Shown here: piece after piece, positions 7,752-52,079 of the stretch | Layout: the number at the start of each line of letters is the position of its first letter | Position numbering within the stretch: the first letter of the stretch is position 1 | Origin: Podarcis gaigeae | Lineage: Eukaryota | NCBI GenBank assembly: GCA_964106915.2 | Contig: OZ066923.1 | Direction: 5' to 3' (one strand) | DNA length: 64,000 nt | Translations under genes and position numbers: made by a program | Notes under the pieces: model-generated | The model's input: the letters and a program-made list of their open reading frames with translations, nothing else | Database searches by the model: none | Told to the model about the DNA's origin: nothing

Positions 7752-8168
7752 TGTAATGGTTATATGGGGTTGCTCGTGCGTAAGTTGCCACCACTCCTGG
7801 CTAGGTAGCCTGGTTAAACGTTTCCTGGCTGGACAGCCCTTCACTTCGTGGCTGTTCAGTCACTAGCAGAATCCGTCAGTGGGCGTTTCTTGAATTTCTT
7901 CCAGCAAAGAAATTCTTTGACGCCAAGTCTACGCCTACTTCTGCGCAGGGTGGGTGTGGGTAGCAGAGGCCCTGTGCTCTCCCCGCTCGTCTCCGGCGAA
8001 GAGTCCTGGAGCCCTCTCTCCGATTCCCCCATCCGCCCCCCTTTATCCCTGGCGTTACGCTGATTTCCTTCCCCAGCTGCTGAGTCCCCTCTCTCTCTGC
8101 TTGGCCCTTCTCCGGCACCGCTTGGGAGCCCTGCCTCCAACCCTGGCTCCAATGTCAGTTCCCTGACA
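7752..8168 (-). mobile_element. Solo-LTR-like element (probably Gypsy), 417 bp, copy 1, carrying an ORF
   Basis: Minus strand reads TGTCAGGGAA...CCATTACA. Perfect 5-bp TSD GAAGG (7747-7751 / 8169-8173). Same family as 22731-23165. Confidence 0.88.
7856..8167 (-). CDS. LTR-embedded open frame, 103 aa, no initiating ATG (VRELTLEPG...RRRLGVKEFLCWKKFKKRPLTDSASD*)
   Basis: Open from base 2 of the element. Differs from copy 2 by an in-frame 18-nt deletion. Confidence 0.55.
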   Translation of the reverse strand, partial: VRELTLEPGLEAGLPSGAGEGPSRERGDSAAGEGNQRNARDKGGRMGESERGLQDSSPETSGESTGPLLPTPTLRRSRRRLGVKEFLCWKKFKKRPLTDSASD

Positions 8169-22730: not shown

Positions 22731-23165
22731 TGTCAGGGAACTGCCATCAGAGCTAGAGGCAGAGGGAAGGCTCCAGAGGGATGCCGGAGAGGGTCCCAGT
22801 AGGGAGAGAGGCAGCCCATCTGCTGGGGAAGGAAATCAGCGTAACACCAGTGGAGAAGGGGGGCAGATGGGGGAATCGGAGAGGAGGCTCCAGGACTCTT
22901 CACCGGAGACCAGCGGGGAGAGCACGGGTACTCCGCTGCTCACACCCTCCCTGCGCAGAAGACTTCCTTGCAGGGAGAGTAGGAGGAGACTTGGCGTCAA
23001 AGAACTTCTTTGCTGGAAGAAGTTCAAGAAACGCCCACTGACGGATTCTGCCAGCGACTGAGACAGCCACGAAGTGAAAGGCTGTCCAGACAGAAAGGGT
23101 TCAACCAGGTAACCTAGCCAGGAGTGGCGGCAACTTACGCACGAGCAACCCCTAGAACCATTACA
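22731..23165 (+). mobile_element. Solo-LTR-like element, 435 bp, copy 2, inserted in a CR1 3' end
   Basis: TGTCAGGGAA...CCATTACA with TSD GATGC (22726-22730 / 23166-23170). The CR1 sequence resumes directly after it. Confidence 0.9.
22732..23061 (+). CDS. LTR-embedded open frame, 109 aa (VRELPSELE...RRRLGVKELLCWKKFKKRPLTDSASD*)
   Basis: Open from base 2 of the element. The ORF-track ATG at 22723 is supplied by the flanking CR1. Shows many synonymous differences against copy 3. Confidence 0.6.
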   Translation, partial: VRELPSELEAEGRLQRDAGEGPSRERGSPSAGEGNQRNTSGEGGQMGESERRLQDSSPETSGESTGTPLLTPSLRRRLPCRESRRRLGVKELLCWKKFKKRPLTDSASD

Positions 23166-35707: not shown

Positions 35708-36716
35708 CAGTGGTACCTCAGGTTACATACTGTCAGAGTTGCCTCCAGGTCCCAGCTCACAGAGGACCAACGCTAGTCAGTAATAACGTATAAAAGTCTT
35801 TATTGAAGATTAGTTTCCATTTCCAAACCGCAGCGTGCAACTCTACGTCTTAGAGCTTAGATCGGCAAAGCTCCATCTGAGTCTCCGCCTCTTAGACACC
35901 AGTTTAAGACTCTAGCCTTACTCCACCTCTTCCGTTGTTCTTTCCTCCTCTGGGTCCTTCTGCCCCCTGGGGTTTCCTCCTTTCTGGACTCTTCTGATGC
36001 TGACCCCCCTGAGTCTTGCCCCTCCTTCCGGCGGGCTTTAGGACCTGGCTCCCTATCCGGGCTACCTGCTGTGCCGCTCGCCTGTACATTTGAACTTGGC
36101 GCGCGCGCCCAGCCGGTAACTTTCCTCTTGACCGTTTCCCCGCTCTCCGATGAAGGCGTGGCCAGTCCTGACTCATCTCCTCTCGCTGGTGGTGAGAACA
36201 CTGGTCCCGATGCCTGGGAATCCTCCCCCCCCCACTGCGCTCTGGTGGGGAAGCTGGTCCTGATTTCCAACTGCTGCTCTGGGAGTCCCCGCTGGCCCCT
36301 TCCTTCTGGGGTTTCCCCCTTGGCACCCCCCTTGCCCTGGCCATCGGCGCTCCCTTCTGTGAATCTTCCGATTCGCTGGAGAGGCGCATGGAATCCCTCT
36401 GATCACTGTCACCGCCTACGCTCCCTTCGGATTCCTCCCCCTCACTCTCCATTTCCTCCCTCTCCTGTGCCTCTGCTCCTGAGCCCCTGACACATACGCT
36501 TCAGGTTACATACACTTCAGGTTACACACTCCGCTAACCCAGAAATAGTGCTTCAGGTTACAAACTTTGCTTCAGGATGAGAACAGAAATCGTGCTGTGG
36601 CGGCGTGGCTGCAGTGGGAGGCCCCATTAGCTAAAGTGGTGCTTCAGGTTAAGAACAGTTTCAGGTTAAGTACGGACCTCCGGAACGAATTAAGTACTTA
36701 ACCTGAGGTACCACTG
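35708..36716 (+). mobile_element. Tigger/pogo-like MITE hosting LTR copy 4
   Basis: TA|CAGTGGTACCTCAGGTTA...TAACCTGAGGTACCACTG|TA, same family as 4607. Confidence 0.9.
35731..36492 (-). mobile_element. Solo-LTR-like element, 762 bp, copy 4 (different family), nested in a MITE
   Basis: TGTCAG...CTGACA termini with TSD CATAC (35726-35730 / 36493-36497). AATAAA near the 3' end on the minus strand. A ~210-aa frame runs from base 2 with one frameshift at a 9-C run (36225-36233). Confidence 0.88.
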
Positions 36717-39808: not shown

Positions 39809-41027
39809 TGTTATGCCTATTGATGTGGTTGCTTGAGAGCAGTAGGCAAGGTCCCTCACTGGTCTTTTCAAAGGCTTTATTATTGGTGCAAACATTTACA
39901 ATGCAGAACGCCTCTATTCCATGTCTTGCTCACTCACTAGCAGAATCTGAGAGTGGGCGGTCCTTAAACTTTCCCCAGCAGAGTAGTCTCTTGACCCCCA
40001 GCCGACGCCTCCCCTTTCTGCGTGAAAGCCTACTGCGCAGGGAAGGCTTGGGTAAAGGGGGACCTCCCTCCTCCCCGCTTTGCTCAGGCACGGTGTCCTG
40101 GCTCTTTCTTGCATCCTCCGAGCCCTGCAGGTCTTCCCCACTAGAGGCATGGCTTCCTTCCTCCACTGAGGAAGTGCTGCTTCCCACGATTTTTGGAGGC
40201 TCTCTGTAATCCAGCTGCCCTTCCACCTCTCATAGAATCATAGAATCATAGAGTTGGAAGAGACCCCAAGGGCCATCGAGTCCAACCCCCTGCCAAGCTG
40301 GAAACCCCATCAGAGCACTCCTGACATATGGTTGTCAAGCCTCTGCTTAAAGACCTCCAAAGAAGGAGACTCCACCACACTCCTTGGCAGCAAATTCCAC
40401 TGTCGAACAGCTCTTACTGTCAGGAAGTTCTTCCTAATGTTTAGGTGGAATCTTCTTTCTTGTAGTTTGGATCCATTGCTCCGTGTCCGCTTCTCTGGAG
40501 CAGCAGAAAACAACCTTTCTCCCTCCTCTATGCGACATCCTTTTATATATTTGAACATGGCTATCATATCACCCCTTAACCTCCTCTTCTCCAGGCTAAA
40601 CATGCCCAGCTCCCTTAGCCGTTCCTCATAAGGCATCGTTTCCAGGCCTTTGACCATTTTGGTTGCCCTCCTCTGGACACGTTCCAGTTTGTCAGTGTCC
40701 TTCTTGAACTGTGGTGCCCAGAACTGGACACAGTACTCCAGGTGAGGTCTGCCCAGAGCAGAATACAGAGGCACTATTACTTCCCTTGATCTAGATGCTA
40801 TACTCCTATTGATGCAGTCCAGAATTGCATTGGCTTTTTTAGCTGCCGCGTCACACTGTTGGCTCATATCAAGTTTGTGGTCAACCAAGACTCCTAGATC
40901 CTTTTCACATGTACTGCTCTCAAGCCAGGTGTCACCCATCTTGTATTTGTGCCTCTCATTTCTTTTGCCCAAGTGCAATACTTTACATTTCTCCTCTCGC
41001 ATCTGAGCTGATGGCAGTTCCCTGACA
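39809..41027 (-). mobile_element. Solo-LTR-like element, ~452 bp, copy 3 (diverged subfamily), split by a CR1 and nested in a MITE
   Basis: Minus strand reads TGTCAGGGAACTGCCATCAG...AATAAA...GCATAACA. TSD TGAAG (39804-39808 / 41028-41032). Removing the CR1 and one TSD copy restores a 109-aa frame ending at the stop at 39930. Confidence 0.88.
40231..40992 (-). mobile_element. CR1 LINE 3' fragment (young), inserted in LTR copy 3
   Basis: ORF2 C-terminus (KCKVLHLG...[13 protein letters not shown]...RRLRGDMI), (ATTCTATG)n tail and TSD CCTCT. Confidence 0.96.
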
Positions 41028-41074
41028 TGAAGCGTCTGTAACAGCATGGTACTCCTTGACTACACAGTGAGGAA

Positions 41075-50525: not shown

Positions 50526-51288
50526 TGTTGTTGTTGTTTAGTCATTTAGTCGTGTCCGACTCTTCGTGACCCCATGGACCAGAGCATGCCAGGCACTTCT
50601 GTCCTCCACTGCCTCCCACAGTTTGGTCAAACTCATGCTGGTAGCTTCGAGAACATCATCCAACCATCTCGTCCTCTGTCGTCCCCTTCTCCTTGTGCCC
50701 TCCATCTTTCCCAACATCAGGGTCTTTTCCAGGGAGTCTTCTCTTCTCATGAGGTGGCCAAAGTTTTGGAGCCTCAGCTTCAGGATCTGTCCTTCCAGTG
50801 AGCACTCAGGGCTGATTTCCTTCAGAATGGAGAGGTTTGATCTTCTTGCAGTCCATGGGACTCTCAAGAGTCTCCTCCAGCACCATAATTCAAAAGCATC
50901 AATTCTTCGGCTTTCAGCCTTCTTTATGGTCCAGCTCTCACTTCCATACATCGCTACTGGGAAAACCATAGCTTTTACTATACGGACCTTTGTTGGCAAG
51001 GTGATGTCTCTACTTTTTAAGATGCTGTCTAGGTTTGTCATTGCTTTTCTCCCAAGAAGCAGGCGTCTTTTATTTTCGTGGCTGGTGTCACCAACTGCAG
51101 TGATCATGGAGCCCAAGAAAGTAAAATCTCTCACTGCCTCCATTTTCCCCCCTTCTATTTGCCAGGAGGTGATGGGACCAGTGGCCATGAGCTTTGTTTT
51201 TTTGATGTTGAGCTTCAGACCATATTTTACGCTCTCCTCTTTCACCCTCAATAGAAGGTTCTTTAATTCCTCCTCACTTTCTGCCATC
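50526..51288 (-). mobile_element. BovB (RTE) LINE, 5'-truncated
   Basis: Intact 249-aa RT C-terminus (MAESEEELKNLL...HGVTKSRTRLND), (CAA)n tail and TSD AGAAGGCTGTT (50515-50525 / 51289-51299). Confidence 0.96.
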
Positions 51289-52079
51289 AGAAGGCTGTTG
51301 GGGTGTGTGTGAAGAGATGCAACATGGGTTGCATGTGGGGCTGCTCAAGTGGGAGACCTGAGTGCTCTGTGTGATGCAGCCGTGTGAGGATTTTATCATG
51401 CAGCTCCTGGGCCACCTCCACAGGAGAGAAAATGCTGTCTGTGGAGCTAGTCTCTCCCGCGCTTTCTCACTGCAATAAGCATTCTAGGGGCTAATTAAAT
51501 CAATTCATCTGTGCGGTGCTTGGACATCTCTTGAAATGCTCGCTGGGGCTTCTCTTCTAACTCACTCACTGGCTGTCCCCGTGAGTTTTGGAGGTAAACA
51601 AGTGCCTCTACAGTAGCAGCAAAATGCTAATTTTACTCGGGGAATGCTCAGCAGCCAGCAAAGGCCGAAGCCCCAAAGATGCATTGTTCATGCTGAGCTC
51701 TCTGCTCATTTTCAGCCTCAGGCTGTGTACCAGCACTGCACAATGAGCTCCCTATGATTATTTGCATTGTTTATTATTTCGAGTGTGATATTGCCTGAGG
51801 GGCTTTTAGGTGTACAGAGCTTTAATTTTTCTCATCATTTCTTGGCACCAGGTAGGAAAATTGGCTCTTGCATCCTCGCCGCATTTGCAAAGCATTCCAC
51901 AAGCCGTAGCTATAAATAAACCTCTTTTTAATGTGCCTTCAATGGCAAACTGCCTTTTCTGGCGGCATCTTTGGCACCTCTCTGCAAAGCCATACAGCAC
52001 CATTATGGCACATCAACAATGCCCGAATAGGAAGTGCTAGTGTAACTATTTTTATATGAACCATTTACAGTTAGTTATA

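Follow-up and report, generated by a model that had tools for sequence, protein, structure and literature searches.

Retroviral open reading frames coded in U3, such as HIV nef and MMTV sag, are separate genes on spliced RNAs. The frame described here, from LTR retrotransposons of the lizard Podarcis gaigeae, also overlaps the U3 of a 3' LTR but is instead continuous with pol. A design of this kind is known from plants: according to the accessible text of PMC3059260 and PMC3605345, pol of CRM group A is extended into the 3' LTR, and a CR motif there directs centromere targeting. As far as that text goes, the lizard elements share with CRM group A a polyprotein that reaches into the 3' LTR and a conserved, LTR-coded motif at the integrase C-terminus, whereas they differ in priming (tRNA-Met in CRM, self-priming in the lizard) and in keeping an upstream chromodomain (intact in family B, apparently degenerate in family A) where CRM elements have no true one. 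Because the lizard elements self-prime and family B has a chromodomain, they are not members of CRM group A; they work like CRM elements without belonging to them, and I infer that the likeness is convergent. The LTR-coded tail is a real, selected feature and a vertebrate variant of the design known from plant CRM elements.

Self-priming is given as a mark of the Tf1/Sushi group in the accessible part of PMC6317226, and the LTR ends of the lizard element fit the Sushi termini in Table 3 of PMC3601003, as far as that paper is accessible. With this group the lizard elements share gag followed by PR-RT-RH-IN-SH3-chromodomain (the last apparently degenerate in family A), a self-priming site in place of a tRNA site, and a 5-bp TSD. 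In two outgroup chromovirus proteins 63-74 residues separate the start of the chromodomain from the C-terminus, whereas lizard pol ends inside the 3' LTR. The accessible text of PMC3601003 and PMC11011659 contains no description of a pol that ends in the LTR, and neither does the literature searched, among which subscription papers were few, so that a prior mention is quite possible.

The window LTR and its family

The window is a stretch of 64,000 nucleotides (contig OZ066923.1), and all coordinates without a locus name refer to it. The LTR under study and its parts are as follows.

35731..36492, minus strand: solo LTR, Gypsy family A, subfamily A1 (from terminal repeats and TSD, genomic copies, and flanks of whole elements)
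35726..35730, plus strand: left TSD, CATAC
36493..36497, plus strand: right TSD, CATAC
36225..36491, minus strand: pol-tail piece 1, acidic and Ser/Gly-rich (tblastn of a natural relative, residues 1-89)
35857..36222, minus strand: pol-tail piece 2, to the stop codon (translation and tblastn)
36225..36233, minus strand: run of 9 G, site of this copy's frame break
35899..35973, minus strand: 25-residue basic+W motif (TPGG...VLNW), in register with family B (coordinates computed from the motif offset and the self-primer site)
35868..35878, minus strand: 11 nt complementary to a site 3' of the 5' LTR in whole elements; inferred self-primer and transcription start, U3/R border
35799..35804, minus strand: AATAAA polyadenylation signal
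35708..36716, no strand assigned: MITE-like repeat, TA-flanked with inverted ends, host of the LTR insertion

The 762-bp LTR has TGTCAG..CTGACA ends that form a 6-bp inverted repeat, and the A1 LTR sequence also borders whole gag-pol elements. One minus-strand frame starts VRGSGAEAQEREEMESE... at base 2; a second terminates ...VLNWCLRGGDSDGALPI, with its stop codon at 35857-35859. The first-pass annotation of this DNA had placed the element, its ends, its TSD, both translated pieces, the G run and the AATAAA correctly, and had proposed one frameshift at the 9-G run. Because both frames are open over 36402-35904, the window sequence alone does not place the break within that interval; tblastn with a natural relative switches frame at 36225/36222, which places the break at the G run, as proposed. 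The window copy is a broken relic. A plus-strand open frame of 209 codons (35861-36490) was rejected; it has at most 179 codons in most unbroken copies. A second LTR (L027), its frame likewise broken, sits at the same spot in another copy of the MITE-like repeat, in the opposite orientation.

The window LTR belongs to a large, young Ty3/gypsy family of the Tf1/sushi type. A search of the lizard's own genome gave 2439 first-look candidate LTR copies, of which 40 were scored (the window copy and 39 others); scored A1 copies are 98-100% identical, the window LTR being 98-99% identical to the other 39, and LTR copies are spread over many contigs. Subfamilies A2 and A3 have LTR DNA 83% and 90% identical to that of A1. 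The coding frame of about 210 aa read from the window, and its continuity in other family members, are both upheld in these copies: 25 of 30 fetched close copies have a single frame of 210-211 codons without a stop, which begins at LTR base 2 and ends in LNW (the window copy being one of the five in which it is broken), and the frame is likewise unbroken in 20/20 A2 copies and in 18/20 A3 copies, all of these samples being best BLAST matches, not random draws. In the 46 of 70 LTR loci (L001-L030, L102-L141) with an intact 5-bp TSD, the base three positions out from the TSD is A or T in 46/46 on the left and in 45/46 on the right. Several elements of subfamily A2 (L162-L167) have LTR pairs that are 100% identical, and A2 insertion is therefore very recent. 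Full-length and nested elements abound on contig C32, where the stretch at about 24.6-27.4 Mb contains many near-identical A and B elements that seem to have been duplicated along with the DNA around them.

Locus L031 is a whole element with two LTRs, gag, and a pol with protease, RT, RNase H, integrase and SH3 domains; as in Ty3/gypsy elements generally, two TG..CA LTRs and a TSD enclose gag and PR-RT-RH-IN. In its gag/pol overlap, GGGAAAC (L031:5274-5280) is a likely -1 frameshift site, which I take to resemble the site in PEG10.

All three family A elements compared have a site 3' of the 5' LTR that is complementary over 11-12 nt to a site within the LTR, and the two partners differ together between A1 and A2/A3, a compensatory change. 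The corresponding match was found in 2 of 4 two-LTR elements of family B, the LTR end being misplaced in the other two. In Tf1 the primer consists of the first bases of the RNA. If the same holds here, transcription would start 10-22 nt before the stop codon of the tail; the RNA would start at the self-priming site, the genomic RNA would then have U3 at its 3' end alone, where U3 would be translated as the end of Gag-Pol. Since the tail fills the inferred U3, a solo LTR could probably not express the tail from its own promoter and is likely to be a silent relic.

The LTR frame as the end of pol

The LTR frame is the C-terminal end of pol, not a separate gene. Five of the six youngest whole A2 copies (scored as elements whose TSDs are intact and whose two LTRs are 100% identical) contain a 1566-codon ORF that extends from the protease across the polypurine tract and ends in the 3' LTR; in the A1 copy L097 a pol of 1528 codons does so too. 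The complete fusion is also found in UniRef proteins of Podarcis muralis for both families (P0011; P0016, P0017), and P0007 from P. lilfordi spans the pol/LTR junction. In a scan of 41 family B loci, 8 of the 16 distinct chromodomain stretches listed continue to the LCW motif, the rest having failed the pattern or stopping early. The order of parts is integrase, SH3, chromodomain, FxGF-like motif, acidic linker and LTR-coded tail; pol extends about 190-370 residues beyond the chromodomain and ends within the 3' LTR, the polyprotein reaching into it as in CRM group A. I regard a function of the tail within pol as very probable. What this means for annotation is that the tens to thousands of apparent solo-LTR ORFs in such genomes are relics of pol tails, not genes.

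Many copies lack this continuity. Across the subfamilies of family A, 6 of 19 two-LTR stretches have a pol continuous to the tail (A1 1/12, A3 0/1, A2 5/6). Among 28 A1 copies chosen by an integrase query, 13 have a pol/LTR junction that is not in frame, which counts against the tail being strictly needed; of the 15 in-frame copies, 9 are near-duplicates on C32 with another break upstream. P0014 (Podarcis muralis) ends in a shifted frame like the out-of-frame A1 copies. The sites of breakage are several G runs that lie no more than about 35 nt from the LTR. Of the 34 non-triplet indels, 31 are in contact with runs of at least 4, which make up 18% of positions (each of the indel and junction-typing samples omits 2 partial loci out of 30). 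The commonest shifted class is unclustered on a tree whose sample is biased towards that class (8 changes over 11 rows; 157 of 500 shuffles equally low). Recurrent slippage or assembly error fits these breaks better than a tail-less lineage does.

The LTR-coded tail is under purifying selection. Between A1 and A2, dN/dS (Nei-Gojobori, natural copies) is 0.08 in RT-RH, 0.10 in integrase, 0.14 in the chromodomain-like region, 0.25 in the acidic linker and 0.31 (0.19-0.45) in the tail, against 1.41 and 0.91 in the other sense frames, while dS is similar in tail and core (0.41 vs 0.49). Across six subfamily pairs (three A, three B; the pairs share sequences) the tail stays at 0.24-0.31, with upper bounds of at most 0.58, and the other sense frames range over 0.73-2.84. 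The last 45 codons of family B have a dN/dS of 0.08-0.17, with dN 0.13-0.27 and dS near or above 1, values above 1 being noisy; such a dS beside a low dN indicates that the protein, not the DNA, is conserved there. Antisense LTR frames, whose ratios also told against the 209-codon plus-strand frame, gave dN/dS 1.06, 1.56 and 0.39; the frame with 0.39 has its third positions in common with the sense frame. In this young vertebrate family the same DNA serves as a promoter region and codes for a protein sequence under selection.

Two readings would deny that the tail matters as part of pol. Under one, read-through into the LTR is passive, and a G/A-rich, T-poor composition together with promoter constraints keeps the frame open; the first-pass annotation had itself worried that purine-rich composition alone might suffice. 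Among 20000 dinucleotide shuffles some sense frame is fully open in 545 (2.7%), and the tail's own frame in 179. Openness of the frame is for that reason weak evidence, and the claim for the tail rests on the selection test. The Trp codon of the basic+W motif, moreover, falls within the core promoter region, at -23. Against this stand the low ratios of the tail beside those of the alternative sense frames, the changes between A1 and A2, which pile up at the third codon position (20/28/53), and the last 45 codons of family B, with a dS near or above 1 and a low dN; passive read-through is already largely refuted by these and is highly improbable. The other reading makes the frame an accessory gene like nef or sag, expressed through an ATG just before the LTR or by splicing, with fusion to pol optional. 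It draws on an in-frame ATG within the polypurine tract of family A and on LTR frames being open far more often than the junction, but family B proteins have Val, not Met, at the place of the ATG, the youngest copies are fused to pol, and the junction breaks, spread over several G runs and unclustered on the tree, are what slippage predicts. An accessory gene is therefore improbable, and I proceed with the tail as the end of pol.

Families A and B compared

The window contains two further LTRs and a fragment that belong with a second family, B.

7752..8168, minus strand: family B LTR
22731..23165, plus strand: family B LTR
39933..40175, minus strand: family-B-like LTR, older fragment

The first-pass annotation had called the two families sequence-unrelated. 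That is right for the LTR DNA, where likeness is negligible (best match 22 nt, E 0.003), but wrong for the families themselves: RT-integrase is 61% identical between A and B and 42-46% identical to outgroup proteins, and a tree of that region joins A and B at 100/100 (14 rows with sparse, long-branched outgroups, B1_L211 dropped, and no named V-clade element among the rows). The variable linker length that it had suggested is real, with 100-109 codons in family B vs 207-210 in family A. It had also seen the order of Pro, Arg cluster and hydrophobic-W mirrored between the families. Both tails do end in an ungapped 25-residue pattern, in register, of TP, an Arg cluster, two hydrophobic residues and Trp, but the match is statistically weak by hhalign, which aligned only the basic+W block of the A and B tails (27 columns, P 0.0068, probability 5.6%). 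A shuffle test gave p of at most 0.017 in 9/9 pairs for the last 50 residues, a span picked after the motif was seen, and p<0.05 in only 4/9 pairs for whole tails. Positional evidence, independent of these tests, also supports the match: the Trp codon of the motif lies 23 nt before the self-primer in 4/4 subfamilies. Within the motif region of family B, the window has inverted GAA/TTC repeats (7860-7920 and 23010-23050), presumably heat-shock-element-like.

Upstream of the LTR, the FxGF-like motif lies at a single fixed offset from the start of the chromodomain in 11/11 A/B proteins, its first position being L or M in three of them, and at that offset in 0/2 outgroup proteins; P0023, in which no chromodomain was located, was left out of this comparison.

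A profile search of 1.84 billion representatives returned 388 matches at E<=0.001, the best 150 of which were examined. Among the matches listed, only P0024, P0025 and P0030 cover the whole profile, and most others match the chromodomain alone; the search thus contributed two members and a possible third lineage. This candidate, P0030, has a chromodomain, an acidic FLGF and a basic LLCW end, with a putative LTR border, and was not found in the P. gaigeae genome with the query used. The LTR-coded tail, which the first-pass annotation had taken for a clade-wide feature, is established in two lineages only, and every named carrier is a Podarcis.

Possible function of the tail

The Pfam Chromo model passes its cut-off in 2/2 family B proteins and gives no hit in 2/2 proteins of family A, whose chromodomain-like region nevertheless aligns ungapped to the family B chromodomain; the family A chromodomain therefore looks degenerate. 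AlphaFold2 predicts for family B a folded chromodomain, a helix preceding the acidic FxGF segment, and a tail mostly at pLDDT <50 with a short helix on the basic+W motif. The LTR-coded tail matched no Pfam family, ESM Atlas returned nothing on it, and a sequence search of the PDB gave a single match no better than chance (E 0.44), so that the chromodomain alone was recognised. No peptide of a TND-interacting motif (TIM) came up when the PDB was searched with one copy, whose FxGF-like motif has a substitution.

Two described systems bear on what such an arm could do. The accessible text of PMC7459421 describes in Ty1 integrase a small targeting domain tied to an NLS linker, and that of PMC9987994 describes TIMs that bind LEDGF/HRP2 as a helix, an acidic linker and FxGF. 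Judged by that account, the lizard proteins have a candidate TIM pattern of short helix, acidic Ser/Thr-containing linker and FxGF, family B having two such motifs; they differ in that the FxGF-like motif is upstream of the LTR, not inside it, and in that the linker of family A is less acidic.

Taken together, the window copy is best read as the frameshifted solo LTR of a Tf1/sushi-type Gypsy element whose selected pol tail is probably an arm of integrase for chromatin targeting and nuclear import; for the job of the tail by itself, targeting or import seems slightly the better bet. The tail would remain on integrase as a disordered extension whose terminal basic+W motif, acting alongside the FxGF-like motif upstream of it, would bind nucleosomes or importin. 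The basic+W motif may resemble the nucleosome-binding motif of CENP-C, a likeness on which a literature search found no paper. If targeting is the function, the tail would correspond, in a vertebrate, to the CR motif of plants, and the elements would provide a candidate short-motif mimic of LEDGF partners. The tail could, however, be a real part of pol with another task: its Arg cluster might act in RNA binding, packaging or particle assembly, or the protease might release the tail as a small accessory protein. Arg-rich disordered segments are of a kind that commonly binds nucleic acid, and purifying selection is silent on which function is selected. This reading is unlikely in view of the position of the tail, at the integrase C-terminus behind the chromodomain, which is where the accessible CRM papers place targeting domains, and of the FxGF-like motif upstream at its fixed offset.

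Within the targeting reading, a more specific scheme is a multi-part tether, in which three parts would act together: the chromodomain, a mimic of the host FxGF motif that would recruit LEDGF/HRP2 (or some other protein with a TFIIS N-terminal domain), and the basic+W motif, which is encoded in the LTR promoter region and would bind nucleosomes. In family A the new motifs would have replaced the decayed chromodomain. I put this forward tentatively, as a possibility with the balance against it; if true, it would be a vertebrate convergence on both the plant CRM design and a lentiviral host factor.

Two Podarcis gene models, a phospholipid ATPase (P0021) and a vomeronasal receptor (P0022), contain pieces of family B pol and are probably annotation chimeras. 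Elsewhere in the window there are long open frames at 40310-41059 and 50538-51344, which I take to be the 3' ends of LINE RT genes (CR1-like, RTE/BovB-like).
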